64,000 nucleotides of DNA from an uncultured Rickettsiales bacterium (lineage in GTDB: Bacteria; Myxococcota_A; UBA796; UBA9615): the NCBI GenBank assembly GCA_964512225.1, contig CAZEKB010000033.1, positions 424-64,423 of the forward strand, given 5' to 3'. Position numbers and translations under genes: made by a program. The stretch's first letter is position 1. The number at the start of each line of letters is the position of its first letter. Below the pieces are notes generated by a model. The model saw only the letters and a list, made by a program, of their open reading frames with translations, was not told the origin of the DNA and made no database searches. Below, piece after piece: positions 2,657 through 63,430 of this stretch.

Positions 2657-2682
2657 CCGCCGACGATACCCGCCCGCGCCGC

Positions 2683-3714
2683 TCAGTCCGCCTCGCCGTC
2701 GAAGTACGACCGCGGCGCGAAGGCCGCCGTCCTGCCCAGCGCGCGCACGTGCACGCGGCCCGTATCGGGGAAGATGCAGACGTCGTCGGGCACGTCCGTC
2801 CCCATCACCAGCAGCACGGCGTCCGGCGCGTCCGGGGGGTTCACGACGTGGTGCGCCACCCCGTCCGCCGGCCGCCAACGCACCACGTCGCCCGGCTGCA
2901 GCCGCGCCTCCTCCAGCGTCGCGTCCTCGAACCGCGGGACCCGCTTCTCCACCGTCCCCCGGAGCTGCTGCAGCAGCGGTGCGCCCTCGAGCACGTACAG
3001 CAGCTCCTCGTCGCCGGTGTGCGCGTGCAGCGGCCCCGTCCGCCCCCCCGGAGGCAGTCGGTCGCGGTTCACGAACACCGCGTAGGCCCCCGCTTCCCGC
3101 GCGAGCGGCATGCCGAACCCGTTCCCGCCCAGGTCCCGCTCGACCATGCGCGACGGCGACGCGACGTGCTTCGGTCGGTCGTCGTCGTCCAACACCACCA
3201 CCCTGCGCCCGGACGCCCGCTCCGCCGCCTCGGCCAGCACCACGTCCGCCGCCGTCGCCCCGAAGATCCCCACCTTCTGGAGCGGCCGCAGCATCGTCTT
3301 GCCGCTGTCCGGGTACTGGCAGATCTCCCCCCAGCGGTCCTCGGACACCGCCAGGAACCGCGCCGGCACCTCCCCCCGGTTGTAGAACCCGTGCGCGATC
3401 CCCGTGTTCGACGGGTACGCGACCAGCTCGCCCGGGTGCAGCGCGAACTCGATGTAGTCCCGCGCCCCCGGATGCAGCTCCCGCACCACCAGCTCGCCGT
3501 CGAGCACCACGAAGTGCTCCTCCTCGAACCGGTGCGAGTGCAGCGGGCACGACCGGGCCCCCGCGGGGACCTCCACGATCCCCGCCCCGAGCAGCGCCTT
3601 CTCCCCCGGGATCAGGGCGCGCCGCCGGGCCGCGAACGGCGGCGGCAGGGGCCAGGCGTGGGGCTCGTCCAGGTCCGCCGTGCGGAGGACGTTGACCGGC
3701 AGCGGGCGCGTCAT
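2683..3714 (-). CDS. Tandem cupin-domain protein
   Basis: Two cupin motifs, LHSH..EEE..VVL.G...H and LHAH...EE..YVLEG...H; ATG at 3714 overlaps the upstream stop. Confidence 0.85.
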   Translation of the reverse strand: MTRPLPVNVLRTADLDEPHAWPLPPPFAARRRALIPGEKALLGAGIVEVPAGARSCPLHSHRFEEEHFVVLDGELVVRELHPGARDYIEFALHPGELVAYPSNTGIAHGFYNRGEVPARFLAVSEDRWGEICQYPDSGKTMLRPLQKVGIFGATAADVVLAEAAERASGRRVVVLDDDDRPKHVASPSRMVERDLGGNGFGMPLAREAGAYAVFVNRDRLPPGGRTGPLHAHTGDEELLYVLEGAPLLQQLRGTVEKRVPRFEDATLEEARLQPGDVVRWRPADGVAHHVVNPPDAPDAVLLVMGTDVPDDVCIFPDTGRVHVRALGRTAAFAPRSYFDGEAD

Positions 3715-25073: not shown

Positions 25074-26549
25074 CCCCAGGAGCCTCTCCACGTCCAGGTG
25101 GGCGCGGAGGTGGTGCGCGAGCGCGTCGTACTGGGACTGGCGCCACGCGTCGTGGGACTGCGTCGGGGCTTCCAGGGCCGCGTCCGGGCGGATCGAGGTC
25201 AGGTACGCGCGGGCGGCGGCGGGCTCGTCGAACAGCCCGTGCAGGTACGTCCCCGCGACCCGCCCGTCGGGGCTGATCGCCCCGTCCGGTCGCCCCTCGA
25301 TCTCCAGGAGCGGCTGCACGTCGCCCTTCGGCTCCGTCAGCCCCATGTGGATCTCGTAGCCCGTCACCGGGTGCTCCCCCCAGCGGCCCGCCACGCGCTT
25401 CGTCCGCTTGCGGCTCGCCATCGTCGTGCGCACCGGCAGCAGGCCCAGCCCCGCCGTCGCGCCGGGGCCGCCCTCGACCCCGTGGGGGTCGTCGATCCGC
25501 TCGCCCAGGATCTGGTAGCCGCCGCAGATGCCCAGGAGGCGTCCGCCCGCGGCGGCTCGGGCCGCCAGGCGGGTCCGCCACCCCACGCGCTCCATCCACG
25601 CGAGGTCCCCCCTCGTGTTCTTCGTGCCCGGGAGCACGACGAGGTCGTACGGGCTCAGGTCCCGCGGCTCGGCCAGGTAGTGCACGCGGGCCCCGTGGCG
25701 CTCGAGCGCCTCGAAGTCCGTGAAGTTGGCGATGTGGGGCAGGCGGAGGACCCCCACGTGCAGCCGCTCACGGTCCCGCGGGGCGGGCCCGTCCACCACG
25801 GCGTCCGCCTGGAGGCCGTCCTCGGGTTCGATCCGGATGTCCCGGGTCCACGGCACCACGCCCAGGATCGGCAGCCCCGTGCGCCGCTCCAGCCAGGCGC
25901 GGCCGTCCTCGAACAGGCTCGCGTCGCCCCGGAAGCGGTTGATGATCACGCCCTTCACGAGCTCTCGGTCCGCCTCGGGCATGACCTCGAGCGTGCCCAC
26001 GACCTGGGCGAAGACGCCCCCGCGTTGGATGTCGGCGACCAGGATCACCGCGGCGTCGGCGTGGTGCGCCACCGGCATGTTCACGAGGTCGCGGTCCCGC
26101 AGGTTCACCTCGGCGCACGACCCCGCCCCCTCGGCCACCACCAGCGCGTGAGTCGCGCGCAGTCGGTCCAGGGCCTCGAGCACCACCGCGCGGCGGCTCT
26201 CCATCCCCCCGGAGAAGTAGGCCTTCGCGGCCATGTCGCCCACGACCTCCCCGAGCAGCACCACCTGCGCGCCCACGTCCGTGTTCGGCTTCAACAGCAG
26301 CGGGTTCATGTCCACGTGGGGAGGCAGCCGACAGGCTTCGGCCTGCACGATCTGGGCGCGCCCCATCTCGCCCCCGTCGGGCGTGACGCCCGCGTTGTTG
26401 GACATGTTCTGGGCCTTGTAGGGAGCGACGTCCACGCCCGCTTGCAGGAACAGGCGGCACACGCCGGTGGCGATCCAGCTCTTGCCGACGTCGCTGCCGG
26501 TGCCGAAGACGCAGAGGACGGGCGCGAGGCCCTGTTCGGAGGCGCTCAG
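25053..26549 (-). CDS. cobQ: Cobyric acid synthase; start inferred at a CTG overlapping the upstream TGA
   Basis: GTGSDVGKS P-loop lies upstream of the ORF-track GTG; PYKAQNMS, EGAGS.AEVNL, NFTDF, LPGTKNT, GICGGYQ, GYEIH, GTYLHGLF. Confidence 0.92.
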   Translation of the reverse strand: MSASEQGLAPVLCVFGTGSDVGKSWIATGVCRLFLQAGVDVAPYKAQNMSNNAGVTPDGGEMGRAQIVQAEACRLPPHVDMNPLLLKPNTDVGAQVVLLGEVVGDMAAKAYFSGGMESRRAVVLEALDRLRATHALVVAEGAGSCAEVNLRDRDLVNMPVAHHADAAVILVADIQRGGVFAQVVGTLEVMPEADRELVKGVIINRFRGDASLFEDGRAWLERRTGLPILGVVPWTRDIRIEPEDGLQADAVVDGPAPRDRERLHVGVLRLPHIANFTDFEALERHGARVHYLAEPRDLSPYDLVVLPGTKNTRGDLAWMERVGWRTRLAARAAAGGRLLGICGGYQILGERIDDPHGVEGGPGATAGLGLLPVRTTMASRKRTKRVAGRWGEHPVTGYEIHMGLTEPKGDVQPLLEIEGRPDGAISPDGRVAGTYLHGLFDEPAAARAYLTSIRPDAALEAPTQSHDAWRQSQYDALAHHLRAHLDVERLLGLPDERH

Positions 26550-27475
26550 CGGCGGCGACGGATGCCGACGACGCCCAGCAGCGCCAGGAGGAGCGAGCCG
26601 CCCGCGCTGCCGCTCGAGGCGGCCGAGCAGGACGCGCCCCCGAAGGCCGTCGTGGTCTCGGCGGAGAAGCCGTTCGCCTCCACGGCGCCGTCGCCCTCGC
26701 CCACGGGCGCCTCGATCGCGGTGAGGTCGAGGTCACCGGGCATCGGCCACTCGTCGCTGTGGTCGGGGATGTCCGTCTCGAGCAGCTCGTCGGCGAGGTT
26801 GTACGCCTCCCCGTGGCCCACGTTCTCGGCGACCATCTCCAGGTGCCGGTCGAGCACGACGTACATCGGGATGCCGAAGGAGCCGGAGACGAAGCCGCGG
26901 ACGATGTCCTGGTTCGGGTCCTCGAGGACGGGGAAGTCGAGCTCGTAGGTCTCGGCCCACTGGTCCTTGCTGCCGTCGGTCAGCAGCTCCAGGAGCATGA
27001 AGCCGTCGTCACGTCGGTCGTTCCACTCGTCGTTGGCAGTCCGCGCCGCGGACTGACACGAGCCTCACCAATCTGCGCCGACGCCGATGACGACGACGTT
27101 CCCGTAGAACTCGTGCAGCGAGATCTCTTCGTTGTACTGGTCGACCCGCACGAAGTCCTCGAGGATCTGGCCGACGTCCGAGCCCTCGCCCTCCAGATCG
27201 CCGGGCCGCGCGTATCGGGGGTACTCGCCCGCCCGCGGGAAGTCGGCCTCGTCGTCCGGGTCGAAGTAGTTGAGGTACTCCTCCGAGTCCGAGAAGCCGT
27301 CGCCGTCGGTGTCGTCGCTCTCGGGGTCGGTGCCGATGGCGGCCTCGAACCGGTCGACCAGCTCGTCTCCGTCGGTGTCGGTCGTGGACTCGGCGGTCCC
27401 GGTGCAGCCGACCAGCAGGCCGGCGGCCGCGAGGCCGACCAGGGAGCGGAGGTTCAGGCGCGGGATGGGGCTCAT
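26546..27475 (-). CDS. Selenoprotein: redoxin/TlpA-like lipoprotein with UxxC (Sec137), TSP3-like repeats and MYXO-CTERM-like tail
   Basis: ORFs 27065..27511 and 26546..26998 share a frame and join through TGA 27065-27067, giving GADW-U-GSC; hairpin immediately 3'. Confidence 0.85.
27037..27055 (-). promoter_or_regulatory. Putative bacterial SECIS element
   Basis: CAGTCCGC-GGC-GCGGACTG, perfect 8-bp stem starting 9 nt after the UGA. Confidence 0.75.
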
Positions 27476-27584
27476 GCGCGTGATTCTGCCCGGTACGCGC
27501 GCGTTACGCACGCATTACCGAGGACTTACCCGAGAACGCCCGGCCCGAGACCACACTTCGAGGGCGCCCAGCAAGGAGACCCCC

Positions 27585-27869
27585 ATGAAGTTCCTCGTCC
27601 CCCTCTCCGTCCTCTGCTTCTGCCTCGCCGCCCCCGGCCCGGCCTTCGCGAACCCCGACGAGGACGAGCCCGTCGAGGCCCCGGAGTCCCGGGTCCGCTA
27701 CCAGAAGGTCACCGAGATCGACGGCGACGCCCTCGAGCTCACGGGCGCCGTCAAGGGCCCCCGCGGCGACATCATCTCCCTGCGCCGCAGCGCGCAGTTC
27801 CGGCCCCTCGTGCAGCTCCGCGAGCACTTCGACGTGGAGATGAAGGACTCGGCGAACGCGATCCGCTGA
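27585..27869 (+). CDS. CglF/GltF-like small secreted protein
   Basis: Signal peptide, then VRYQKVTEID...L.G....P.G......R...F..LV.LRE.F..EM..S, resembling myxobacterial CglF; good RBS (AAGGAG). Confidence 0.65.
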   Translation: MKFLVPLSVLCFCLAAPGPAFANPDEDEPVEAPESRVRYQKVTEIDGDALELTGAVKGPRGDIISLRRSAQFRPLVQLREHFDVEMKDSANAIR

Positions 27870-28669: not shown

Positions 28670-29821
<1,152 letters not shown>

Positions 29822-29846
29822 GAGCGGCGTTGTACCCTCGGCCGCG

Positions 29847-30917
29847 ATGAATCGGGTCCTCGGCTTTGCGTTCCTGCTGCTCCTCGGCTGTCCGTCGACC
29901 CGGTCGCAGGCTCCGCCCGCGGACGTGCCGGAGTGCATCGCCGAGCCCGTCCAGGCGGTGCTGGAGAGGGGGAGCTTCGATCCGGTCGGGGCGGTCGTGG
30001 CCGCGCTGGAGACGGCGGACGTGGTGGCCGTGGGCGAGTTCCACCGCCTGGTGGGCGAGATCCGCTTCTTCGCCGACGTCGTCGGTCGCGCGTCGGGCAC
30101 CTTCGACGTGGCGATGGAGCTGCTGCCCGCCTCCCGGCAGGCCGACCTCGACGCCCTCGTCACCGCGGAGTCCTTCGACGAGCGGACTTGGTGGTCGATC
30201 GTCGGGGATCGGCATCAGCTCGTGCCCATGGACGCCGCCGAGTACGTCGAGATCCCGCGCGCCGTGTGGCGGGCCAACCGCGCGCGGGGGGACGAGCCCA
30301 TCCGGCTCATCGGGCTGCTCCCCGACTGTCGCCTGGAGAGTCACCCCTCCCGGGAGGCGGTGATCGACTGCTTCCGCGGTCGGGACGACGCCATGGCGGC
30401 GATCGCGCGTCGCGAGGCCCTCGACCGCGGGCGCACCGTGCTCCTGGGCGCCGGTTCGCTGCACATCGCCCCCCTCGCCGCCGGCCTCGGAGACCTCCGC
30501 TTCGTCGGCGTGGTGCTCGCCGGGCCCGTGGATGACAGCGGGCTCGGCTGGGGGAGCACCTGCGGGGGCCTGTTCCGATCGATGCACGGGGCCCTCGGCC
30601 GCCCGTTCGCGGTGCCCGTCTCGGGACTCCGCCTGCCCGCCGACTGCGTCTCGACGGGGGTCGACACCGTGGTCGAGCTGGGGCCGGTCGCCCGCATGCC
30701 TCCCCCGTCGGCCCCGGACGGGCTCGCCTTCACCGCCATCGGCCCCGACGCCCTGCTGTCCTGGGATCGCTTCCGCGGCGAGTTCCTGTCGGAGCCGCCG
30801 CGGGGCGACGCCGAGAATTGGCGGCTGGAGACCGCCCGCGAGCTCCTCCGGTTCACCGACCGCGAGGAGCCGCCCCCCCGGGCCTGTCCGGACGGGCTCG
30901 GCCGAGACGGGGGATGA
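29847..30917 (+). CDS. ChaN/Tiki-like superfamily lipoprotein
   Basis: LLGC lipobox; VVAVGEFH, VAMELLP...Q..LD, RDD.MA, G..H. Confidence 0.6.
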   Translation: MNRVLGFAFLLLLGCPSTRSQAPPADVPECIAEPVQAVLERGSFDPVGAVVAALETADVVAVGEFHRLVGEIRFFADVVGRASGTFDVAMELLPASRQADLDALVTAESFDERTWWSIVGDRHQLVPMDAAEYVEIPRAVWRANRARGDEPIRLIGLLPDCRLESHPSREAVIDCFRGRDDAMAAIARREALDRGRTVLLGAGSLHIAPLAAGLGDLRFVGVVLAGPVDDSGLGWGSTCGGLFRSMHGALGRPFAVPVSGLRLPADCVSTGVDTVVELGPVARMPPPSAPDGLAFTAIGPDALLSWDRFRGEFLSEPPRGDAENWRLETARELLRFTDREEPPPRACPDGLGRDGG

Positions 30918-33459: not shown

Positions 33460-34464
33460 ATGGCCGTCGAGCGCAGCTACCAGGTCCTCGATCCCACCGC
33501 CGTCGACATCGCCGACGCCGCCCGCGAGACATTCGCCGAGGACGTGCTCGTGGGGCTGTCCGAGCGGCCGAAGCGGATCAGCAGCAAGTACTTCTACGAC
33601 GGGGAGGGGAGCCGGCTCTTCCAGCGGATCACGGATCTGGAGGAGTACTACCTGACCCGGGCCGAGGCGGAGATCTTCGAGACCCGGGGGAGCGAGATCG
33701 TGGCGGCGGTCGGGGACCGGCCCCTCAACCTGGTGGATCTCGGCGCCGGGGACGGGCGCAAGACGGTCCTGCTGCTCGAGCGGCTGCTCGCCGCCGGCGT
33801 GCCGGTCCGGTACGTGCCCATCGACATCTCCGAAGCCGCGATGGCGGAGCTCATCGATTCGATGGGCGCGCGGTTCCCGGAGCTGCCCATCTCGGGCTTG
33901 ATCGCCGAGTACTTCGAAGGCGTGCGTTGGATCGGGCGGCAGAGCGAGCGCCACAACCTCGTCCTGTTCCTGGGCTCCAACATCGGCAACCTGAACAAGC
34001 CCCTCGCGCGGGCGTTCCTGCGACGCCTGTGGCGGGCCCTCAACCCGGGCGACCACGCGCTGGTCGGGTTCGACCTCAAGAAGGACATCGAGCTGTTGCT
34101 GGCGGCCTACAACGACGACCAGGGCATCACCGCGGCGTTCAACCTGAACCTGCTGCGGCGCATCAACATCGAGCTCGGCGCCGACTTCGACGTGTCGAAG
34201 TGGCGCTTCTTCTGCACCTACAACGTATTCAGCGGCGCGATGGAGAGCTACCTCGTGAGCCTCCAGGCCCAGACGGTGCACATCGAGGCCCTGCAGTCGC
34301 GGTTCTCTTTCGCGCCGTGGGAGCCGATCCACACGGAGTACTCGTACAAGTACCTCGACTCGGACATCTCCGGGCTCGCGGAGCACGGGGGCTTCGAGGA
34401 CCAGGCTCGCTTCTACGACTCCAACCGCTGGTTCTGCGACGCGCTCTGGCGGGCCAAGAAGTAA
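33460..34464 (+). CDS. egtD: EgtD-like L-histidine N-alpha-methyltransferase
   Basis: KYFYD..GS.LF..IT.L.EYY.TR.E, DLG.G.G.KT, P.DIS, FLGS.IGN, G.DL.K, AYND..G.TA.FN.N.L..IN, IHTE.SYKY. Confidence 0.85.
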   Translation: MAVERSYQVLDPTAVDIADAARETFAEDVLVGLSERPKRISSKYFYDGEGSRLFQRITDLEEYYLTRAEAEIFETRGSEIVAAVGDRPLNLVDLGAGDGRKTVLLLERLLAAGVPVRYVPIDISEAAMAELIDSMGARFPELPISGLIAEYFEGVRWIGRQSERHNLVLFLGSNIGNLNKPLARAFLRRLWRALNPGDHALVGFDLKKDIELLLAAYNDDQGITAAFNLNLLRRINIELGADFDVSKWRFFCTYNVFSGAMESYLVSLQAQTVHIEALQSRFSFAPWEPIHTEYSYKYLDSDISGLAEHGGFEDQARFYDSNRWFCDALWRAKK

Positions 34465-40655: not shown

Positions 40656-41497
40656 AGCGGCTCATCGTGAGCGCCGACGACGTCGGCCTGGTCCCGGGCA
40701 TCACCGCGGGCGCGCTGCGGGCCTTGCGGGACGGGATCGTGACGTCGATCTCGGTGATGACCGCGACGTCGGGGTGGGACGCGACCCGCGCCGCGCTCGT
40801 CGACGCGGGGGTGACCCACGTGGGCGTCCACATGACCCTGTGCGAGGGCCGCCCGGTCCTCGCCGCGGAGCGGATCCCCACGCTCGTGGACCCCTCCGGT
40901 GCGTTTCCGATCGACTTCGGGGCGGTGGTCCGGCGGGTGGCGACGGGGCGGGTCGATCGCGGCGAGCTGACCCGCGAGTGGATCGCCCAGGTGCGGCGGG
41001 CGCAGGAGGCGGGGTTTCGGGTCACGCACGTGGACGGCCACAAGCACGCGCACCTGCTCCCGGGGCTCCCGCGGGTGTGTCGGGCGGTGCTCGAAGCGAC
41101 CGGAGTCCAGGGCCTGCGCCGGCCGCACGAGCCCGGTCCCGGTCCGCGGCGAGGGGTCCGCGCGGCCCTCTCCCTGGCTTCGACCGCCGCGGGGCGGTGC
41201 GGACGGGCCCCGGATCGGTGCGTCGGGATCGGCGTGGCGGGCGGGCTGACGGAGGACCGGCTGCTGGAGCTGCTGGGCAGGCTGCCCGACGGCACCTCGG
41301 AGCTGGTGTCCCACCCCGGGGCAGGCGGGGCGCAGCTCGTGACCGCCATGGAGGCGGACGGGCTGGCCTGGGGGCGCGACTACGGGTTCGGGGACGAGCT
41401 CGCGGCGCTGACGTCGCCCCGGGTGCGGGCGGCGGTGGAGGCGGCGGACATCGAGCTGATCTCCTGGGCGACGTTCCTCGAGGGCGCGCCGGTCTAG
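40652..41497 (+). CDS. ChbG/HpnK (YdjC) family deacetylase
   Basis: LIV.ADD.G, G.VTS.S.M, VGVH.TL.EG, THVDGH.H.H, EL..HPG. Confidence 0.9.
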   Translation: MKRLIVSADDVGLVPGITAGALRALRDGIVTSISVMTATSGWDATRAALVDAGVTHVGVHMTLCEGRPVLAAERIPTLVDPSGAFPIDFGAVVRRVATGRVDRGELTREWIAQVRRAQEAGFRVTHVDGHKHAHLLPGLPRVCRAVLEATGVQGLRRPHEPGPGPRRGVRAALSLASTAAGRCGRAPDRCVGIGVAGGLTEDRLLELLGRLPDGTSELVSHPGAGGAQLVTAMEADGLAWGRDYGFGDELAALTSPRVRAAVEAADIELISWATFLEGAPV

Positions 41498-43578
41498 GGG
41501 ACGACGAAGGGGTCCACGGAGTCGCCCGCGCGCCAGGAGGCCCGGGCGTCGGCGAAGGCCCAGCCCCGGGCGAAGCCGTCCGCGAGGGCCGGCTCCCACC
41601 CCGCGAGGCTCTCGGGAGACCACTGCGTCGTGGGCGCGATCCGGCGCAGCCTGGAGGCCGCCCCGTAGACGATGTTCGGGCCGAACTCCGCCGACGTGAA
41701 GAGCGGGTGGCCGCCGCGGCCGAAGAGGGCCTCGGGCGTCGTCACGCGGGCGAGCTCGGTGTCGACGTGCAGGCGCCCGATGAGCGGGCACAGCGGGCGC
41801 GTCCCCCAGGACGTGGCCGCGCAGGCGGCGCGCACGAACGTCGTGCCGCGGCCTTGGACGGCGTCGAAGGGGAGGCCCTCCTGGAACCCGCGCAGCAGCA
41901 CCTCGCCCCGCTCGGGGCCGAGCGACTCGGCGTTGGCGAACACGCCCGCGACGAGCTCCTCGACGGGGATCTCGGCGTGGCTGTGGGGGGCGTCGCCGAG
42001 GACCCGGCCCATGCCCTGGACCAGGAACGGCACGTCCTTGGGCAGCGGCCGCCCCCAGTGCTCCTCGAACTCGTCGAGGCGGCGGCTCAGGTACGCCGGA
42101 TCCGCCACGAGCTTGGTCGCGTCGGCCGCCCAGTAGCGGCCCGCGGCGCGCCGGTGGGCGGCGCGGCTGATCGGGTCCGGGTGCCCGCACCGGACGTGCC
42201 AGTACATCCCGGGCCCCCGGCCGAGGCCGGGCCCGTAGAAGCCGAGGTAGGAGAAAGGGTCCAGCTCGTCGCGGAGCTGGTCGGGCTCGGCGTAGTGCTC
42301 CGCGTCCAGGGCGGCGGCCCAAGCCCCCGCGCCGACGACCCAGAGCACGCCGAAGGATGCCGCCCGGGTCCACCTCCATCGCCACAGCAGCCCCGCGGCG
42401 CCCGCCAGGCCCAGGGTCCAGGCGAGCTGGATCGGCACGACGTAGCGCGGCGCCGGGACCCCGGGGGCGCCGACCACGACGGGGTCCGCGAGGGTCTGCA
42501 GGATGGTCGGGTCGACCCGGAAGGGGGCCACGACGTAGCTCGCCGCGTAGCCCGCCCCCAGGGCCAGGAGGACCGCGGCCGCCCACCCCGCAGCCCGGGT
42601 CGGGGCCTTCGCGAGTGAGCCGAGGGCCGCCGCCAGGAGGCCGATCCCCACGAGCCACGCCGCCGACCAGGTGCGGCCCGCCCACGCGAACAGCTCGAGG
42701 TGGTGGCGGTCGCCCGCGTCGCCCGCGATCGCGAACAGGTAGGGGCGGAGCGTGACGCCGAGGGCCTCGAGGGTCTTTTCGGCGTACGCGGGGGTCGCCG
42801 ACTCCGCCCGGATCGCCCCCATGACCTCGCGGAATACGAGGCCGAAGCCGCGGTTCGCGAGGGGGCCCCCGTCGGCGGTGAGGAAGAGCGCGTTGGCGGC
42901 CCCCAGGAGTGGGAACCCGAGGAGGCCGACGGCGCATCCGGCGAGGGCCCGCAGGCCGCCGGGCGCGAGGGCGACGAGCAGCGCGGGCCCCGCGGCCACG
43001 GCCGTCCGGATGTACCAGGCCCCGAAGGCGAGGGCCGCCCCCGCGGCGAGACCGCGTCTCCAGGTCGGCGGGCCGCGGCCGGAGACGGCGATGGCGAGGG
43101 GCACGAGGCCGTAGAGGAACCCCGACGAGTGGCCCCCCGCGGGGGTGAGGAGGCCGTCCTTGATCACGAACGGGGACGCCGCGAGCAGCAGGAGGAAGGC
43201 GACGGCGCCGACGGGCCCGGTGAGCCGACGGAGCAGGACGACACCGGCGGCCGCGATCCCCATGGCGTAGGCGAGGCCGTACCACTTCCAGGCGAGGAGG
43301 TGGTCGCCGAAGACGGCGAACCCCAGGGCCGACAGCAGGGCGTCGACCACGCTCGATCCCTGGTAGACGTTCCCCTGGAACCACCTCAGCTGCTGGATGT
43401 GGCCGTGCAGCAGCTCGCGGCCCGCGGTGGGGACGAGCAGGGACTCGTGGTCGTGCAGGTAGGCCGCGTGACCCTCGAGGCGCACGAGGAAGGCGGCCCC
43501 CACCACCGCGACCCCGAGGGCCCAGGCGGCCGCCTCGAGCGCCGCCCGCCGACGCTCAGAAGAGGTGGTCGTGGTCAT
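41494..43578 (-). CDS. Polytopic membrane protein, GT-C/ArnT-like
   Basis: About 10-12 hydrophobic helices, N-terminal loop with DHE and YQG, soluble C-terminal domain. Confidence 0.6.
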   Translation of the reverse strand: MTTTTSSERRRAALEAAAWALGVAVVGAAFLVRLEGHAAYLHDHESLLVPTAGRELLHGHIQQLRWFQGNVYQGSSVVDALLSALGFAVFGDHLLAWKWYGLAYAMGIAAAGVVLLRRLTGPVGAVAFLLLLAASPFVIKDGLLTPAGGHSSGFLYGLVPLAIAVSGRGPPTWRRGLAAGAALAFGAWYIRTAVAAGPALLVALAPGGLRALAGCAVGLLGFPLLGAANALFLTADGGPLANRGFGLVFREVMGAIRAESATPAYAEKTLEALGVTLRPYLFAIAGDAGDRHHLELFAWAGRTWSAAWLVGIGLLAAALGSLAKAPTRAAGWAAAVLLALGAGYAASYVVAPFRVDPTILQTLADPVVVGAPGVPAPRYVVPIQLAWTLGLAGAAGLLWRWRWTRAASFGVLWVVGAGAWAAALDAEHYAEPDQLRDELDPFSYLGFYGPGLGRGPGMYWHVRCGHPDPISRAAHRRAAGRYWAADATKLVADPAYLSRRLDEFEEHWGRPLPKDVPFLVQGMGRVLGDAPHSHAEIPVEELVAGVFANAESLGPERGEVLLRGFQEGLPFDAVQGRGTTFVRAACAATSWGTRPLCPLIGRLHVDTELARVTTPEALFGRGGHPLFTSAEFGPNIVYGAASRLRRIAPTTQWSPESLAGWEPALADGFARGWAFADARASWRAGDSVDPFVVP

Positions 43579-44161
43579 GGTCGTGGGTGCGGAGGTGCCC
43601 GAGCACGTGGAGCAGGGCCCCCGCGAGGGCGCACAGCAGGAGCGCGGTGACGGGTCCCCCCGTGGCCGGGGTGACGGTGGTCGTCGTCCAGAACCCGACG
43701 GCGGTGCAGGCCGCCGTGGCCGCGAGCACCGCCGCCGCGGCGGCGGCTCCGGCGCGGTGCTTCACGATCCGCCAGGTGGCGACCCCCACCGGCAGGGTGT
43801 GGACCAGCACGGCGGCGGCCAGCGGGTGTTCGTGGCCGTGCCCGCCCGGGGCGGCGAGGGCGGCGCCGTCCACGAGCGCGTGGAGCAGGAGGGCGCCGAT
43901 GGCGAGCCACGCGCCGCCGTGGGCGAGGCCCGGGATCCGGTGCAGCAGGGAGGCGAACAGCGCGCCCCCGGCGAGCGCGGGCACGGCGGGCCATCCGATG
44001 GCCTCGAGACCGTAGGGCAGCACGGTGAGGGCCACGACCGCCACGACGACGACGACCACCACGACGTCCACGATCCGCTGCAGGACCGGGTGGCGGTCCC
44101 AGAGGCGATCGAGCAGCGGAGCCGCCGCGAGGGCGAGCAGGGCGAGGAGGAGAGGCAGCAA
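43556..44161 (-). CDS. ZIP/ZupT-like metal transporter
   Basis: LHALVDGAAL and VLVHTLPVG resemble ZIP TM4/TM5 motifs; His-rich loop GHGHEH and tail HDHDHDH. Confidence 0.6.
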   Translation of the reverse strand: MLPLLLALLALAAAPLLDRLWDRHPVLQRIVDVVVVVVVVAVVALTVLPYGLEAIGWPAVPALAGGALFASLLHRIPGLAHGGAWLAIGALLLHALVDGAALAAPGGHGHEHPLAAAVLVHTLPVGVATWRIVKHRAGAAAAAAVLAATAACTAVGFWTTTTVTPATGGPVTALLLCALAGALLHVLGHLRTHDHDHDHLF

Positions 44162-46156: not shown

Positions 46157-47722
46157 ATGTCGAAGCCGTCGAAGCAGTCCGCCCGTCTCCGCATCCTCGA
46201 AGCCGCGTTCCAGGAGTTCGCCGATCGCGGGTTCGAGGCCACCACGATGCGCGGCGTCGCCAAGCGCGCCGGGTGCTCGCTGGGCCTCGCGTACGCCTAC
46301 TTCCCCTCGAAGCACGGGCTGGGGCTGGCGCTGTACCGACGCGTCGCGGACGAGGTGGAGCGCGAGATCCCCAACCTGCCCGACGGCACGGTCGCGGAGC
46401 GGTTCGGCGCGCTCATGGAGGCGAAGTTCGGGTTCCTCGACGCTCACCGCCCGACGCTGACCGCCCTGATCGCCGCGGGGATCGACCCCACGGGTCCCCT
46501 CGGGGCGCTCTCCGACGCCACGGCCGCGATCCGCTCCCGGAACTCCGCGGCGTTCGCGGCGGCGGTGGCGGGCGCGACGGACGCGCCGAAGGAGTCGAAG
46601 GACCGAGCGGCGCTCGGGCGGCTCGCCTACGGCATCCACCTCCTGCTCATCCTCGTGTGGACCCAGGACGTGGAGGGCAGGCTGGCCCGCGAGGTCCTCG
46701 GGGTGGCGTGCCGCGTCCTCAAGGGCGCCGTCCCGTTGATCCTGCTGCCCCCGATCAAGGGCCCGCTCGACCGCCTCGACGCGGCGTTCGGCGACCGCCT
46801 CACGGCGGCCGTGAGCGCCGACGTGGAGGAGCGCGCCCGCATCGTCGTCACCCGGCTCATGCGGCACCGTCGGGTCCTCCCCAGCGTCGGCCCGGTGGAC
46901 GACGCGGCGATGGCGCCGCACCTCGTCCGCGTCCGCGCGGCGATCGTGGAGGGCCGCCCGCTCGAGCTCGTGCTCCCCGGCTTCCCGGCGAAGTCGCCGA
47001 GCCCGTTCAAGACCCTCGGGCCGCTCCCCGACATGGCGGAGCGGCTCGCGCTCCGGTCGCTTCAGGACCTGTGCGACGAGCTGTCCGAGGCGCACGCCCC
47101 CGGCGTCACGCTCACGCTCTGCTCGGACGGCGGCGTGTTCGCCGACCTCGTGGGCGTGTCCGATGAAGACGTGATCGCCTACGGGGAGCACATCGACGCG
47201 TGGATCGAGGACCTGCCGTCGCTCCGCCGGTTCGATCTCCCCGACGCGTTCGGTCCGATGGCGCCGTCGGACGCCCGGGCGCGTCTGATGGACGGGTGGT
47301 CCGAGGACACGGAGGTGCTGCGCCGCCGCGCCCGGGAGGTGCCCGCCCTGCGCACCCTCCTGGACGGCCTCCAGCGGTTCCTGTTCGAGGATCGTCTCGG
47401 GGTCGACCGGCGGAGCCGCACGCAGATCCGCAAGAGCGCGGGGGCGGACGCGATCGAGCTCCTGCGTCGATCGCGTGCGTGGGGTCGACTCGTCGCGTTC
47501 CAGTTCCCGGACGCCGTGCGCCTCAGCATCCACCCGCAGCCCGCGCTGTCGGACAAGCTCGGCGTGCACCTGGTGCCCACGGCCGATGCGTGGCTGACGC
47601 CGTGGCACGGGGTCGCGCTCCTGGGGGAGGACGGCTTCGAGCTGGTGAAGCGTCGGGACGCCGAGGAGTGCCAGGCCCGCCTCGTCCTGGCCGACGGCCG
47701 CCCGAGCCACTTCGAGCGATGA
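46157..47722 (+). CDS. TetR regulator fused to isonitrile synthase (PvcA/IsnA/Dit1 family)
   Basis: N-terminal TetR HTH (ILEAA...F..RGF..TTMR.VAKRAG.S.G..Y.YFPSK); C-terminal LPGFPAKSP, GPLPD.AE.LAL, CSDG..F.DL, S.AW, RLSIHPQ, K.GV.L, W.TPWH. Confidence 0.88.
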   Translation: MSKPSKQSARLRILEAAFQEFADRGFEATTMRGVAKRAGCSLGLAYAYFPSKHGLGLALYRRVADEVEREIPNLPDGTVAERFGALMEAKFGFLDAHRPTLTALIAAGIDPTGPLGALSDATAAIRSRNSAAFAAAVAGATDAPKESKDRAALGRLAYGIHLLLILVWTQDVEGRLAREVLGVACRVLKGAVPLILLPPIKGPLDRLDAAFGDRLTAAVSADVEERARIVVTRLMRHRRVLPSVGPVDDAAMAPHLVRVRAAIVEGRPLELVLPGFPAKSPSPFKTLGPLPDMAERLALRSLQDLCDELSEAHAPGVTLTLCSDGGVFADLVGVSDEDVIAYGEHIDAWIEDLPSLRRFDLPDAFGPMAPSDARARLMDGWSEDTEVLRRRAREVPALRTLLDGLQRFLFEDRLGVDRRSRTQIRKSAGADAIELLRRSRAWGRLVAFQFPDAVRLSIHPQPALSDKLGVHLVPTADAWLTPWHGVALLGEDGFELVKRRDAEECQARLVLADGRPSHFER

Positions 47723-51887: not shown

Positions 51888-51896
51888 GAGCCGAAG

Positions 51897-57050: not shown

Positions 57051-59750
57051 TCAGGCTCCCAGGCGCTCCACGCGCACCGCGCAGACCTTGTACTCGCCCG
57101 TCCCGGTGACGGAGTCGCCCGCGTCGTTGGTGAGGCGGTTGGTGATCGCGTCGGGGAAGTGCAGCGGCATCCACACGCACCCGCGGCGCATGCGCGCGCT
57201 CTCCCAGACCTGCGCCTCGATCGCCCCGCGCCGGGAGACGACCTTCACCGTCTGGCGGTCGCTCAGCCCCAGCCGACGGATGTCGCGCCGGTGCATCTCG
57301 ATGAAGTTGGTGGGTTGCTTCGCCATCGCGCCGTCCGCGCGCAGTGTCTGCGTGCCCGCGTTGTAGTGGTATAGCGTGCGGCCGGTGGACAGGACCAGGG
57401 GGTACTCGTCGTCGGGCAGCTCGTCCGACGGCCGGAACGCCACGCCCTGGAACGGTGCCTTGCCCTTGAGGGGGCCGTCGCCGTGCAGGGTGGGGGTGCC
57501 GGGGTGGTCCGGCGTGGGGCACGGCCACTGCAGACCGCCCTCGGCCTCGATGCGCTCGTGGCTGATCCCGCCGAACTTGTCCGCCAGCGACGCCATCTCC
57601 GCGTAGACCTCGGCCGGGCTCGCGTACCGCGGCATGTCGTACCCGCACGCCCGGGCGAGATCGGCGACGATCTCCCAGTCCGCGCGCGCCTGCCCCGGCG
57701 GCTCCACCGCCTTGCGGACCCGCTGCACCCGCCGGTCGGAGTTCGTGAACACGCCCTCCTTCTCGGCGAAGCAGGCGGCCGGGAGCACGACGTCGGCGAA
57801 CTGCATCGTGACCGTGGGCAGGATGTCCTGCACGACCACGAACTCGCAGAGGTTGAGGCCCATCTCCACCTGGGAGGCGTTGGGCTCGCTCAGGACGATG
57901 TCCTCGCCCATCACGTAGAGGCCCTTGACCTTCCCCTTCGTGAGCTCCTTCATCATGACGTTGAGGTTGAGCCCGTCGTGGGGCGACAGGGGCACACCCC
58001 AGGCCTCCTCGAACTTCGCCCGCGCCGCCGGGTCCGTCACCTTCTGGTAGCCGGGATAGAAGACCGGCGAGGCCCCCGCGTCGTTGGCCCCCTGCACGTT
58101 GTTCTGCCCGCGCAGGGGGTTCATGCCCGCGCTGCGGATGCCCAGGTGGCCCGTCATCAGGACGAGGTTGGCGAGGCTGTAGACGTTGTCCGTGCCGTGC
58201 GTGTGTTCGGTGATCCCCAGCGTGTAGTAGATGCCGGCCTTGCGCGTCGTGGCGTACATGCGCGCGGCCTCGCGGATGTCGTCCGCGGGGCAGCCGGTGA
58301 CCTCCTCGGCCCACTCCGGCGTGGTCTCGGCGACGGCCGCCACGACGTCCTCGAAGTGTTCGGTGTGCTCCGCGATGAAGTCCTTGTCGTGCAGCCCCTC
58401 TTCGATGATCACGTGGGCCATGGCCGTGAGCAGCGCGACGTCCGTGCCCGGCCGCAGCTGCAGGTACACGTCGGCGATCTCGGACAGCCAGATCGCCCGC
58501 GGGTCCGCGACGATCAGCTTGCTGCCGCGCAGCTTCGCCCGCTTCATCTCCATCGCGATGATGGGATGCGCCTCGGTGGTGTTCGAGCCGATGACGAACA
58601 TCAGCTCCGTGTCGCGGATCTCGGGGATCGAGTTGGTCATCGCCCCCGCGCCGAACATGGTCACCAGACCGGCGACCGTCGGAGCGTGTCAGGTGGCCGC
58701 GCACTGGTGGCAGTTGTTGGTCCCGAACGCGGCCCGGGCCAGCTTCTGCACCAGGTAGTTCTCTTCGCCCGTGCACCGCGACGAGCTGATGAAGCCCAGG
58801 GAGTCGGCGCCGTGGCGCTCCGCGACGCCCATGAGGCCGTCCGCCGCCGCGCGGATCGCTTCGTCCCAGGTCGCGGGGACGAGCTCGCCGTTCTTCCGCA
58901 CGAGGGGGGTCGTGAGCCGGTCCTCGTGGTGGATGAACTCGTAGGCGAAGCGGCCCTTCACGCACAGGTTGCCGTCGTTGACCGTCGTGCCCGGGGGCGG
59001 ACTCGTGACGCGGACGACCCGGCCGTCGCGGACGTGCACGTCCATCTGGCAGCCCACGCCGCAGAAGTTGCACGTCGTGCGGACGCGCTCCTCGGCATCG
59101 ATGGCCATGCCCACGAGCTTCTTCTCGGACATCGCCCCGGTGGGGCAGGTGTCGATGCAGCCGCCGCAGAGCTCGCACGTGGAGTCGAGCAGGGATACCT
59201 GATCGGCCGTGGCGATCGTGGTCGACGCGCCTCGGCCCGCGAGCGTGATCGCGGACACGCCCTCGACCTCGTCGCAGTAGCGGACGCAGCGGGCGCAGCT
59301 GATGCAGCTCTCCGGGTCGAAGTGGATGTAGGGGTTCGGGTCCTCCCGGCCCTCGCGCTTCGCGTGGATCGGCGTGTAGGTGGGGCCGGTGCCGTAGGTG
59401 CCCACGTGGGTTCGCACGTCGTTCACGGGCCCGCGCTCGACGGGCAGGCCGTCGACGTCCAGGGGCGCGTCCGCGAGGTAGAGGCTCAGGAGGTTGCGGC
59501 GGTGACGCTGGACGCGCTCGGAGCCGGTCGTGACCTCGAGGCCCTCGCTGACCTTGTAGGCGCACGCGGGCTGCATGCGGCGTTGGTCGCTGACCTCCAC
59601 GAGGCACATGCGGCAGGCGCCCGTGGGGGCCAGGCGCTCGTCGTGGCACAGCGTGGGGATCTCGATCCCGAGCCGCGCGGCGACGTCCTGGACGGTCTCG
59701 CCCGAGCGCGCGGCGACGACGTGACCGTCGATGGTGATCGAGATGCTCAT
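57051..59750 (-). CDS. fdhF: Formate dehydrogenase alpha subunit (Mo/W-bisPGD), selenocysteine at residue 354
   Basis: ORFs 58689..59750 and 57051..58664 share a frame and join through TGA 58689-58691, giving CAAT-U-HAPTVAGL; N-terminal 2Fe-2S and 4Fe-4S motifs; PLRGQNNVQG. Confidence 0.93.
58659..58677 (-). promoter_or_regulatory. Putative SECIS element of fdh
   Basis: GGUCGCCG-GUC-UGGUGACC hairpin (two G-U pairs) starting 11 nt after the UGA, like E. coli fdhF. Confidence 0.75.
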
Positions 59751-61304: not shown

Positions 61305-61904
61305 CTACTCCCTCCCCGTGGTGGCCCACACGTCGATCGTGCCGGACGCGGGCAGCTCGACGGCGATGACCATGACGTTGCGCCCGGCGAAGAAGTCGCG
61401 CGTGCCGTCGAAGGCGATGGTCGCCGTCGCGAGCGTGTCGGTGAAGCCCTGGTAGTCGAAGAAGAAGGGATCGTCCGCGAGGCCCGCCCAGACCTTGTTG
61501 CCCGAGCCGGTGATCGTGGTCTCCACCGGACCCTCGAGCACGGTGGTCGCGGAGAGGCCGAAGGTCGCCTGCACGCCCCAGTCGCTCGCGCCGTTCTGCC
61601 CGAACCGGACGGACACCGTCTCGTCCGCGACCCCGTCGGCGTTCGTATCGACGTGCACCTCGTAGAGCGCCTCGTCGTCGTAGACGGGGGCCCCGCCATC
61701 GCCCAGCGCCGGGATCAGCGGGTTGAACGTCACGATCGCGGTGAGGGTGCCCGAGTCGACCCACGCGTAGAGGTCGGCGATGTCGGTGACGGGGTCTGCC
61801 TGGGTCCCCGGCGCTTCGGCGTGATCGGCCGCGTCCGGCGTGGAGATGCCGATCGCGGCGGCGCCCAGGAGGGCCGCCGCGGTCGCCGCGAGTCGCACCT
61901 TCAT
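61305..61904 (-). CDS. DUF4331-like secreted protein (N-terminal-type motifs)
   Basis: ADH.EAP.....P..DI.DLYAW, Y..HVD, G..DDPFFFD, D.FAG.NV..I..E. Confidence 0.8.
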   Translation of the reverse strand: MKVRLAATAAALLGAAAIGISTPDAADHAEAPGTQADPVTDIADLYAWVDSGTLTAIVTFNPLIPALGDGGAPVYDDEALYEVHVDTNADGVADETVSVRFGQNGASDWGVQATFGLSATTVLEGPVETTITGSGNKVWAGLADDPFFFDYQGFTDTLATATIAFDGTRDFFAGRNVMVIAVELPASGTIDVWATTGRE

Positions 61905-63430
61905 CCCTGCTCCTCGCTCCGGCGGAACCGCTCGGGGAAGTACTTGATCGCCGACCGGATCGGCAGCGAGGCGACCATGCCGAGGCCGCAGATCGAGCCC
62001 TCGTCCATCTCCCAGTGCAGCTCGTCGACGTTCGCCAGCACCGAGGCGTCGTCGGTGCTCAGGAACTCGTCGGTCACCTTGCGTTGCACCCTGCAGCCGA
62101 CGCGGCACGGCGTGCATTGGCCGCAGGACTCGTCCTCGAAGAACACCTGCTGCCACAGCGCGGCCCGGGCGATGTCGACGGTGTCGTTCAGCACGACGAC
62201 CCCCGCCGAGCCGAGCATCGAGCCCGCGTCCGTCAGGCCCTTGAAGTCCAGCGGTCGGTCCCGCATGGACATGGGCAGGAAGCCCGAGCTCGCGCCCCCG
62301 GGCGAGAACGCCAGGGGGGTGCCGACGTAGCCGCCCGCGGCCTCGACCAGCTCGTCCAACGACACCCCGAGGGGCAGCTCGTAGGTCCCCGGCTTCGCCA
62401 CGTGCCCGGAGACGCAGTACAGCTTGCTCCCCGGCTCCGTCCGCCCCTGCGCCGCGAACGCCTCGCCGCCGCTGCGGACGATGTACGGGACGCACGCGAG
62501 CGTCTCCACGTTGTTCATGAGCGTCGGCTTGCCCCACAGCCCCTCGTCGGTGGGGTAGGGGGGCTTGAGTCGCGGCATGCCGCGACGACCCTCGATCGCC
62601 TCGAGCAGCGCGGTCTCTTCACCGCAGATGTAGGCCCCGTGCCCCGTCACGATCTTCACGTCCAGGTCGTCCAGGAACCCGCGCCCGGTCGCCTCTTCGA
62701 TCGCCCCCTCGAGGGCGCGCTTGCTCGCCGGGAACTCGCCCCGGACGTAGATGAACAGGGTGGTCGCCCCCACGGCGAAGCAGGCGATGACGGCGCCCTC
62801 GAGCATCAGCCCGGGCCGTTCGATCATCACCGCGCGGTCCTTGAAGGTGCCGGGCTCTCCTTCGTCGGCGTTGACCACGACGTACCTGGTGGGCTCGGTG
62901 TGCCGCGCCACCGCGTTCCACTTGAAGCCCGCCGGGAACCCGGCCCCGCCCCGGCCCTGCAGGCCCGAGGCGTCGATCGCCTCGCGCACGGCGCCCGGCC
63001 CCATGGCCCGGGCGGCGGCCAACGCGGGCCAGGTGGGATCGTCGCGGCCGGCGAGGTTCATCGGCAGCGTCGGGTCCGCGGGGGTGAGGGCTCCCGGGGG
63101 GCCGGAGCGGGCGGTGTCCAGGTTCCTGTCGACCGCGACGGGAGCCCGGTCGCACCGGCCGAGGCAGCTCACCTCCTCGCAGGAGAGCCCCTCGGCGCGC
63201 ACCCGGCCGGCGAGGGCGTCGGAGCCCGCCATCTTGCAGGACAGGCCGTGGCAGACGCGCACGTCCACGTCCGGGCGGTCGATGAGCGAGTAGAAGGTGG
63301 CGACGCCGTACACGTCGGCGGCGGGCACGCCCGTCGCGCGGGACACGACCTCGGCCGAGCCCGGCACGTTCCCCCCGTGCTCCTCGAGCAGCTCGAGCAC
63401 CTCGTGTCGTTGGGCACCCTTTCGCTCCAT
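61901..63430 (-). CDS. NuoE/NuoF-like fused NAD(H)-binding subunit of FDH
   Basis: VC.G.SC...CLGRC (2Fe-2S), GRGGAGFP.G.KW, NADEGEPGTFKDR, GAYICGEETALL, ESCGQCTPCR.G...CGLG. Confidence 0.92.
   Translation of the reverse strand: MERKGAQRHEVLELLEEHGGNVPGSAEVVSRATGVPAADVYGVATFYSLIDRPDVDVRVCHGLSCKMAGSDALAGRVRAEGLSCEEVSCLGRCDRAPVAVDRNLDTARSGPPGALTPADPTLPMNLAGRDDPTWPALAAARAMGPGAVREAIDASGLQGRGGAGFPAGFKWNAVARHTEPTRYVVVNADEGEPGTFKDRAVMIERPGLMLEGAVIACFAVGATTLFIYVRGEFPASKRALEGAIEEATGRGFLDDLDVKIVTGHGAYICGEETALLEAIEGRRGMPRLKPPYPTDEGLWGKPTLMNNVETLACVPYIVRSGGEAFAAQGRTEPGSKLYCVSGHVAKPGTYELPLGVSLDELVEAAGGYVGTPLAFSPGGASSGFLPMSMRDRPLDFKGLTDAGSMLGSAGVVVLNDTVDIARAALWQQVFFEDESCGQCTPCRVGCRVQRKVTDEFLSTDDASVLANVDELHWEMDEGSICGLGMVASLPIRSAIKYFPERFRRSEEQG

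Follow-up and report, generated by a model that had tools for sequence, protein, structure and literature searches.

The DNA analysed here (the window) is a 64,000-nucleotide stretch of contig CAZEKB010000033.1, deposited under the name of an uncultured Rickettsiales bacterium. A gene on its minus strand, split by public pipelines into two, very probably encodes a single exported, lipid-anchored thiol-disulfide oxidoreductase that contains selenocysteine (Sec). Translation of the window gives a frame running from 27475 to 26546, with 309 sense codons plus a stop and a single in-frame TGA. All the elements named in the initial annotation were found again at the positions it gave. The best explanation as a whole, and one that we regard as probable, is that one gene specifies a 309-residue precursor selenoprotein, with Sec inserted at UGA137, and that the product is exported, lipidated and redox-active. 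The features of the gene are as follows.

26546..27475, minus strand: predicted selenoprotein gene, complete; ATG at 27475, stop TGA at 26546-26548, alternative GTG start upstream at 27511
27404..27475, minus strand: lipoprotein signal peptide (residues 1-23) and lipobox L-V-G-C24; signal pattern, with the Cys column conserved in the alignment
27257..27379, minus strand: two bacterial TSP3 repeats (DxDxDG, Ca2+-binding type), residues 33-73; Pfam PF18884
26813..27181, minus strand: ResA/TlpA/CcmG-type thioredoxin-fold domain, residues 99-221, with W-U137-G-S-C140 and a G-I-P loop; Pfam, PDB and Foldseek
27065..27067, minus strand: predicted Sec codon TGA, residue 137; TGA in nine orthologues, Cys at this column in distant homologues
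27037..27055, minus strand: predicted upper hairpin of a bacterial selenocysteine insertion sequence (bSECIS); 8 bp, 3-nt loop
26738..26770, minus strand: motif I-P-D-H-S-D-E-W-P-M-P behind the domain, residues 236-246; invariant among close orthologues
26549..26644, minus strand: MYXO-CTERM-like sorting tag, residues 278-309; TIGR03901 and tripartite layout

Reading frame and homologues around the internal TGA

The internal TGA is codon 137 (27067..27065) and lies in the context …VVVIGVGADW-TGA-GSCQSAARTANDE…; read as Sec, it gives the motif W-U-G-S-C. A mechanical open reading frame (ORF) finder returns two ORFs in the same frame, 27065..27511 and 26546..26998. Every public gene call likewise divides the gene in two at the TGA, as the initial annotation had foreseen for standard pipelines, and a word-indexed search of 5.8 billion proteins found homologues only as two pieces, N-terminal fragments of 135–138 aa and C-terminal fragments of 150–155 aa. 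The stretches upstream and downstream of the internal TGA share one frame and have a GC content at third codon positions (GC3) of 0.94 and 0.99, respectively; GC3 exceeds 0.9 in all real genes of the window. Ordinary stops in the window are most often TGA, which excludes a general reassignment of UGA. Orthologous full-length frames were found in nine lineages.

A single thioredoxin-fold domain extends over the TGA. In domain scans made with U replaced by C, Pfam AhpC-TSA matches residues 101–207, straight across the TGA (E 7e-12, 45.7 bits, cutoff 26), and Redoxin gives a marginal match (E 6e-6, 26.5 bits against a cutoff of 26.6). Among PDB sequences searched with phmmer, 2ls5 (E 8e-6) and the ResA structure 4nmu (E 2e-5) are matched, with the UGA aligned to the first Cys of WCGVC in the former and of WCKPC in the latter. 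The earlier proposal that W-U-G-S-C occupies the place of WCxxC is thereby borne out, TGA 27067..27065 falling on the first Cys of ResA/TlpA-type structures. The second Cys (C140) and a G-I-P loop of the cis-Pro type are kept throughout the family alignment. The DTDGD repeats, also pointed out in the initial annotation, are recognized by TSP3_bac (PF18884) at 31.2 bits against a cutoff of 25, in two stretches (DTDGDE and DTDGDG). The IPDHSDEWPMP motif is strongly conserved right behind the redoxin domain, and its counterpart in Cys-type relatives is 'EWPLP'.

The likeness to named proteins is at the level of the fold class only. The best named relative is the ResA subfamily (NCBIfam NF002854), far under its cutoff at 32.9 against 170 bits, and relatives reach at most 36 bits on the TlpA model (NF047696), whose cutoff is 230; orthology to ResA or TlpA proper is ruled out by these scores. 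Two curated selenoprotein families were considered and rejected. The UGSC-containing selenoprotein model NF041046 shares the U-G-S-C tetrapeptide and gives no match at E<=1 for the window protein and none in the orthologues. The ResA-like WAxxUGC selenoprotein model NF041054 (UGC-containing TlpA) describes another motif than the W-U-G-S-C found here and does not match the window protein; the best relative, P0023, reaches 22.5 bits against a cutoff of 300. None of the curated selenoprotein models in NCBIfam captures this subfamily.

A structure was predicted for the Cys homologue P0016, whose matched stretch shows 41% identity to the window protein. AlphaFold2, given a 16-sequence family alignment as input, returned a predicted local distance difference test score above 90 for about residues 20–250. 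In the P0016 model, the TSP3 segment is confidently ordered together with the redoxin fold, followed by a disordered Gly/Ser-rich spacer and a terminal helix; the TSP3 repeats and the redoxin fold are therefore predicted to form one compact unit, the repeats not being a floppy linker. A Foldseek search of the model against the PDB returned ResA, DsbE/CcmG, the C-terminal domain of DipZ, Geobacter and Bacteroides TlpA-like proteins and Etrx2, with TM scores of about 0.8 relative to the targets.

Nine distinct orthologues were compared: the window gene, L001 (the same as L013, a locus from a metagenome-assembled genome), L005, L009, L097, L098, L100, L101 and L103. In their locus DNA, the TGA stands at the same codon in nine out of nine. 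Identity to the window protein is 64–80% for the first seven orthologues and 44% for P0013, the C-terminal piece of L103 as given by the gene calls. Protein-level conservation extends through the 22 codons that separate the TGA from the downstream ATG of the gene calls, and these codons change by coding-type substitutions. Cys stands at the UGA column in distant relatives that likewise combine a lipobox, TSP3 repeats and a redoxin domain (L017–L020 and P0015–P0050, with WCGPC, WCMPC or WCAPC), a finding that answers the earlier call for a search for such homologues. In L017, the Cys-type gene occurs as tandem paralogues, the upstream one (1505-2404) without a C-terminal tag and the downstream one (2504-3562) with a MYXO-CTERM-like tail.

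A second Sec clade, consisting of L021, L022/L023 and L046, has TGA at the same active-site column (W-U-A-G-C, W-U-S-G-C and W-U-G-A-C), in loci with a GC content of 0.58, 0.44 and 0.64, respectively. The hairpin of the second clade is a distinct one, of 7 bp with the loop AGGUG or GGUCG, 20 nt past the UGA, and shows compensatory changes from U-A to G-C and from G-C to C-G. The proteins of this clade (L021:2813, L022:2777, L023:2727 and L046:2780) lack the C-terminal tag and contain several extra conserved Cys. The subfamily is small: in an exhaustive HMMER search of 1.84 billion cluster representatives, with residues 138–262 as the query, 39 were matched at E<=1e-3. A metagenome scan keyed on the TSP3 repeats yielded about ten useful loci, about 70 of its 80 loci being irrelevant repeat proteins. 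Pairs of Sec and Cys at redox-active Cys positions are a hallmark of selenoproteins, and the combination of a conserved UGA, a hairpin and Sec/Cys alternation is the classical signature of a selenoprotein family.

If the TGA were instead a true stop, the locus would either be a decaying pseudogene or hold two independent genes, one for a TSP3 lipoprotein of 136 aa and one for a MYXO-CTERM protein of 150 aa. All public gene callers do give two ORFs, TGA is the commonest genuine stop in the window, and no gene for Sec machinery was seen among the window ORFs scanned. The TGA nevertheless falls within the active-site motif of one thioredoxin fold, across which both Pfam and PDB alignments run, and the 22 supposedly intergenic codons are conserved as protein. 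The same TGA recurs in nine lineages, down to about 45–50% identity, with both halves under purifying selection, and full-length homologues with Cys exist. The downstream fragment, moreover, would have an export-dependent tag without a signal peptide. On this evidence, we consider termination at codon 137 as the whole account of the locus to be extremely unlikely.

The hairpin and probable Sec decoding

The perfect 8-bp hairpin that the initial annotation placed after the TGA is found at 27055..27037. It reads CAGUCCGC-GGC-GCGGACUG, begins 9 nt past the UGA and has its loop 17 nt past the UGA. The loop of a bSECIS is mostly N1-G-[G/U]-N-N2, with N1 and N2 paired (PMC13188914), and the consensus that we used asks for a loop of 3–9 nt, an upper stem of 4–16 bp, a G within the first two loop positions, a distance of 16–37 nt between UGA and loop, and a minimum free energy (MFE) of -7.5 kcal/mol or lower. 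The redoxin hairpin lies within all four constraints of PMC13188914, with C20-[G21 G22 C23]-G24, an 8-bp stem, a 17-nt spacing and an MFE of about -22 kcal/mol. On both strands of the window, only 5 of the 1,024 TGA triplets (0.5%) are followed by a perfect hairpin of at least 8 bp under the bSECIS loop and spacing rules.

The nucleotides of the hairpin are conserved beyond what the protein sequence asks for. The hairpin core TGTCAGTCCGCGGCGCGGACTGC is nucleotide-invariant in eight orthologues. Within residues 138–147, eight of the nine degenerate codons whose amino acid is invariant are identical in all, against 57 of 131 (44%) gene-wide (hypergeometric p = 0.0056), and residues 138–146 form the longest run of identical codons in the entire gene. 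The sole ACT and the sole TGT codons of the gene both fall within this run; in the confident genes of the window, ACT accounts for 4 of 341 Thr codons and TGT for 3 of 74 Cys codons. The U of the ACU in the hairpin region pairs with A14 of the stem. In L103, the most divergent orthologue (W-U-S-S-C), the GGC loop and its distance are unchanged and two pairs have changed on both sides, A14-U30 to G-C and C18-G26 to U-A. Over eight aligned sequences, pairing is kept in 98.4% of cells, and the observed covariation was reached by 13 of 500 column shuffles. The covariation is supportive of the hairpin, at a modest level.

The same window offers a second candidate for Sec decoding. When the window was scanned for in-frame TGAs flanked on either side by coding GC3, the one other real candidate was the alpha subunit of a formate dehydrogenase (FDH), and the Sec-type FDH mentioned in the initial annotation was thereby located. 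An assignment of the Sec-FDH to 41494-44161 was wrong; the scan identified the real one.

57051..59750, minus strand: FdsA-type FDH alpha subunit (molybdopterin, NAD-linked), read from 59750 to 57051; in-frame TGA 58691..58689, hairpin 58677..58659
61901..63430, minus strand: FdsB-like subunit; the interval between fdsB and fdsA holds a DUF4331 protein, an unnamed protein and a TPR protein

The FDH TGA stands in the context …CHQCAAT-U-HAPTVAGL… and aligns with the catalytic Cys of Thermoanaerobacter kivui FdhF (7qv7) and with the non-standard residue X in 9t1s, and it falls within the match to 1aa6 (Escherichia coli FdhH). Its hairpin, GGUCGCC-GGUCU-GGUGACC, has the loop 18 nt past the UGA, and we take it to be a close likeness of the E. 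coli fdhF element, with the GGUC loop at the same distance. Public gene calls divide this gene as well, into 353 and 535 aa. The presence of a Sec-type FDH in this window makes it very probable, as far as can be judged from sequence, that the genome has the Sec machinery.

Several observations weigh against the Sec assignment. The loop of the redoxin hairpin is GGC and lacks the GU dinucleotide that the FDH hairpin of this window has; the GU in the loop is critical for SECIS elements of the E. coli type. No SECIS match was obtained with Rfam, either in a gathering-threshold scan of the whole window or in a permissive scan of 26900-27200, which gave noise only. The folding energy of the redoxin hairpin does not differ significantly from that of shuffled sequences (z = -0.6); the z-score is uninformative at 72% GC, since the bona fide-looking FDH element is equally nonsignificant (z = -0.3). 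Both compensatory changes come from a single lineage, L103. A lower stem proposed by RNAfold (positions 5-12 with 35-43) was dropped, as substitutions in L097, L100 and L101 disrupt its pairing, and the helix that we claim is the upper 8 bp only. Neither the window nor ten related loci yielded any tRNA, and hence no tRNA-Sec, and Pfam scans revealed no SelA, SelB or SelD domain in about 45 window ORFs or in the 10 kb beyond the right edge; the search for sel genes thus covered the 64-kb window, 10 kb past its right edge and the related loci.

Compared with the fdhF-type bSECIS of E. coli and the bSECISearch consensus, the redoxin element is alike in being a hairpin in the coding region just 3' of the UGA, with an N1-G-G-N-N2 loop and a GC-rich upper stem. 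It differs in its loop, GGC (or C-GGC-G) without U, and has no bulged U. The atypical loop, the missing Rfam match and the fact that the Sec machinery was not observed directly would also suit a UGA that is recoded as something other than Sec, by hairpin-stimulated near-cognate read-through with Trp, Cys or another residue, or by another mechanism. Against such recoding, the UGA occupies exactly the position of the redox-active Cys, where the insertion of Trp, in the place of the nucleophile, would leave the CxxC site inactive, and the hairpin agrees with the bSECIS consensus of PMC13188914. The same window encodes a bona fide Sec-type FDH, and the second clade has its UGA at the same column together with a GGU-loop hairpin. 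We therefore regard non-Sec recoding as very unlikely, and we infer that SelB binds the redoxin hairpin.

A further possibility accepts Sec and gives the UGA mainly the role of a selenium-dependent switch. When selenium is scarce, translation would end in a 136-residue TSP3 lipoprotein with a function of its own, and when Sec-tRNA is available, it would yield the full-length redoxin. Insertion of Sec in bacteria competes with termination by RF2, and the N-terminal fragment would be a complete lipoprotein with two Ca-binding repeats. Three points speak against a switch: in the AlphaFold2 model of the Cys homologue the TSP3 segment packs with the redoxin as one unit, most members of the family are Cys forms from which no truncated product is possible, and the fragment would end within a β-α unit of the fold. 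A main role as a switch seems improbable to us.

Sorting signals and location of the protein

The N-terminus, MSPIPRLNLRSLVGLAAAGLLVG-C24, fits the lipoprotein signal pattern that we applied ([LVI][ASTVI][GAS]C behind a hydrophobic core, with a basic n-region): R6 and R10 are basic, and the lipobox is L-V-G-C24. The pattern occurs in 26 of 27 family members, in agreement with the lipobox noted in the initial annotation. At the other end, a tripartite tag consists of F-G-G-A-S-C283, a Gly/Ser spacer and a hydrophobic helix, SLLLALLGVVGI, followed by a terminal RRRR. The earlier description of this tail as MYXO-CTERM-like held in part: the layout is tripartite and the window protein scores 20.7 bits on TIGR03901 against a cutoff of 20, but most of the orthologues score below the cutoff. 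All members of the Sec clade have the tag, as do the Cys relatives L017, P0016, P0018, P0023 and P0024; the second clade and many other members lack it. The joint occurrence of lipobox and tag across relatives only about 37% identical suggests that both signals may be in use.

In Myxococcus xanthus, all 35 of 35 MYXO-CTERM proteins bear N-terminal signal peptides, and their tags direct surface display that depends on the T2SS (type II secretion system) (PMC11980579). The called C-terminal fragment of the redoxin gene has such an export-dependent tag and no signal peptide of its own, which argues that the two called fragments are one polypeptide.

The following scheme would account for these signals together with the Sec codon. 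SelB·GTP·Sec-tRNASec would bind the apex of the hairpin (C-GGC-G, 17 nt past the UGA) and insert Sec137, as for the Sec FDH of the window. The precursor would then be exported through the Sec translocon, lipidated at Cys24 by Lgt and cleaved by signal peptidase II (LspA). The compact unit of two TSP3 repeats (Ca2+-type) and a thioredoxin fold would act as an extracytoplasmic thiol-disulfide (selenylsulfide) oxidoreductase, with the Sec137 selenolate as the attacking group on a disulfide (or sulfenate) of the substrate and Cys140 as the residue that resolves the mixed selenylsulfide. The tag made of Cys283, helix and RRRR may be lipidated and cleaved by a myxosortase-type protease, and the outcome could be either a second lipid anchor or T2SS-dependent surface display.

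Several observations speak against the part of this scheme that concerns location. On TIGR03901, the orthologues L001, L009 and L005 fall under the cutoff with 16.7, 18.7 and 19.1 bits, and L103 gives no match; L005 scores 16.7 on TIGR03382, whose cutoff is 15.85. No myxosortase, DsbD/CcdA or substrate gene was seen nearby, and no CPBP protease was present among the window ORFs scanned. We infer surface display and double lipidation of the redoxin from its signals. With NCBIfam, none of five other exported or surface-type proteins of the window matched MYXO-CTERM at E<=1e-3. One of the five, a trypsin-like protease beside the FHA gene (28670-30163, minus strand), has a C-terminal Cys-rich, hydrophobic and basic stretch that looks tag-like by eye; it has no MYXO-CTERM match at this threshold, and the ORF runs past the stretch.

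Two locations can be weighed for the selenoprotein. In one, it would stay in the periplasm as a membrane-tethered enzyme fed by DsbD/CcdA like ResA, CcmG and TlpA, and the C-terminal helix would be a plain inner-membrane anchor or be removed without lipidation. The structural relatives (ResA, DsbE/CcmG, the DipZ C-domain and TlpA) are reductases of the periplasmic side that need an electron donor in the inner membrane, the MYXO-CTERM scores are borderline, and the tail is wholly absent from the Sec homologues of the second clade and from many Cys homologues. On the other hand, the Cys/helix/Arg tag is kept from the Sec clade to the relatives of about 37% identity listed above, tags of this kind lead to T2SS-dependent surface display in M. 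xanthus (PMC11980579), and the structural matches include Etrx2, a thioredoxin lipoprotein exposed at the surface. We see a periplasmic enzyme as a serious possibility, though one to which we give less than even weight. In the other, the mature protein would be a selenoenzyme of the cell surface, held by lipid at both ends (Cys24 through Lgt/Lsp and Cys283 through myxosortase), and as such the first selenoprotein client of a C-terminal sorting system; we put this forward tentatively and think it rather doubtful.

Genomic setting and relation to known systems

The genes around the redoxin gene are partly conserved with it. The conserved neighbours are a divergent small secreted protein, an FHA-domain protein, a trypsin-like protease and cobyric acid synthase.

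27585..27869, plus strand: divergent small secreted protein of 94 aa, motif RRxxQFRPL[VI]xLR; no Pfam family

The 94-aa protein is syntenic with the Sec redoxin in every Sec-clade locus that covers this flank, and is absent beside the Cys-type L017; a functional link to the redoxin is unproven. No genes for cytochrome c maturation, cox, DsbD/CcdA or Msr were seen near the Sec redoxin.

Elsewhere in the window, a TetR-PvcA/DIT1-like protein adjoins a TauD-family dioxygenase fused to a UbiA prenyltransferase (46157-49407, plus strand), an arrangement that suggests a cluster for an isonitrile or a prenylated natural product. Next comes a cluster of two MacB/LolC-E-like permeases, an ABC ATPase and a LolA-like protein (49435-53326, plus strand), possibly for the trafficking of lipoproteins or lipids. 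An EgtD-like histidine-specific methyltransferase of the ergothioneine type (33460-34464, plus strand) and a multihaem cytochrome similar to c554/MtrC (55695-57038, plus strand) were reported as adjoining the FDH cluster.

The L013 orthologue comes from the metagenome-assembled genome CAZUHI01 (contig CAZUHI010000028.1), which is likewise labelled 'uncultured Rickettsiales bacterium'. The window has a GC content of 72%, FHA and Ser/Thr-kinase genes and many lectin, PKD and LTD surface proteins. The Rickettsiales label looks wrong because of the GC content, the MYXO-CTERM-like tags and the FHA/Ser-Thr kinase content, and it also fits poorly with the surface proteins; a marine myxobacteria-like lineage seems more plausible from these sequence features.

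The redoxin works like known thioredoxin-fold selenoproteins with a UxxC site and belongs to an already-known class, of which it is an uncurated member. The years 2004–2005 saw reports of peroxiredoxin-like (Prx-like) Sec proteins whose UxxC is thioredoxin-like and of UxxC selenoproteins termed 'thiol-disulfide isomerase-like' (PMC1088965; PMC13188914), and current selenoprotein tables also hold a UGC-containing TlpA family and a 'UGSC-containing protein' family (PMC13188914). Exported and lipoprotein selenoproteins have been described as well (SAO system, 10.1101/2022.07.06.499078). With the known UxxC proteins of the Prx-like and TlpA-like kinds, the window protein shares the thioredoxin fold (PF00578/Redoxin and the ResA/TlpA matches), Sec at the N-terminal, nucleophilic position of U-x-x-C, widespread Cys homologues, a bSECIS just 3' of the UGA and an occurrence mostly in environmental metagenome sequences. 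It is set apart by features absent from the descriptions of the known proteins that we read, namely the lipobox, the TSP3 repeats and the C-terminal sorting tag.

Among Cys-type proteins, ResA, CcmG (DsbE) and TlpA (PDB 4nmu, 1su9 and 3gl3) agree with it in fold, in the position of WCxxC, in the cis-Pro loop and in a membrane-tethered extracytoplasmic location, whereas the window protein has Sec for Cys and an N-terminal lipid anchor with TSP3 repeats instead of a signal-anchor helix. Etrx1 and Etrx2 of Streptococcus pneumoniae (PDB 4hqz and 2yp6) resemble it in being TlpA-like thioredoxin folds anchored as lipoproteins outside the cytoplasmic membrane; they are Gram-positive, Cys-type and without TSP3 repeats or a C-terminal tag. 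Their partners are MsrAB2 and CcdA.

The clients of MYXO-CTERM and MrtX, such as TraA of M. xanthus, resemble it in combining an N-terminal signal peptide with a tag of Cys, transmembrane helix and Arg (PMC11980579), and TSP3 repeats occur in some of the M. xanthus MYXO-CTERM clients according to the legend of Table S1 of that work. In contrast to these clients, the redoxin has a signal peptide of the lipoprotein type, so both of its ends could be lipidated. In the literature that we searched, no selenoprotein client of MYXO-CTERM or myxosortase was reported, and no paper joining selenoproteins and Myxococcota was found, which is weak evidence given the limited literature covered; that the best-ranked literature on selenoproteins and lipoboxes does not mention 'lipobox' is weak evidence too. 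The distinguishing trait of the redoxin is the lipoprotein signal, the TSP3 module and the MYXO-CTERM-like tag on one protein.

As long as the calls for this family stay divided at the Sec codon, its redox domain remains hidden from domain-based annotation, and a curated model of the subfamily would mend dozens of metagenomic entries. Within a small family, Sec and Cys forms alternate and two SECIS solutions are found at one codon, a natural case for studying the exchange of Cys and Sec and the evolution of SECIS elements inside coding sequences. If both sorting signals operate, the protein would be a tractable test case for lipoprotein sorting and myxosortase/T2SS sorting on one polypeptide. 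If the surface location is true, Sec would enable a ResA-like site to act at the outer surface of a Gram-negative cell, remote from the electron supply of DsbD/CcdA, and its targets might be, for example, disulfides on the surface of prey or partners, or metal(loid) species in oxic seawater. For the organism, the finding would mean that selenocysteine is used in an exported protein of the envelope by a marine lineage that is uncultivated, rich in GC and myxobacteria-like.

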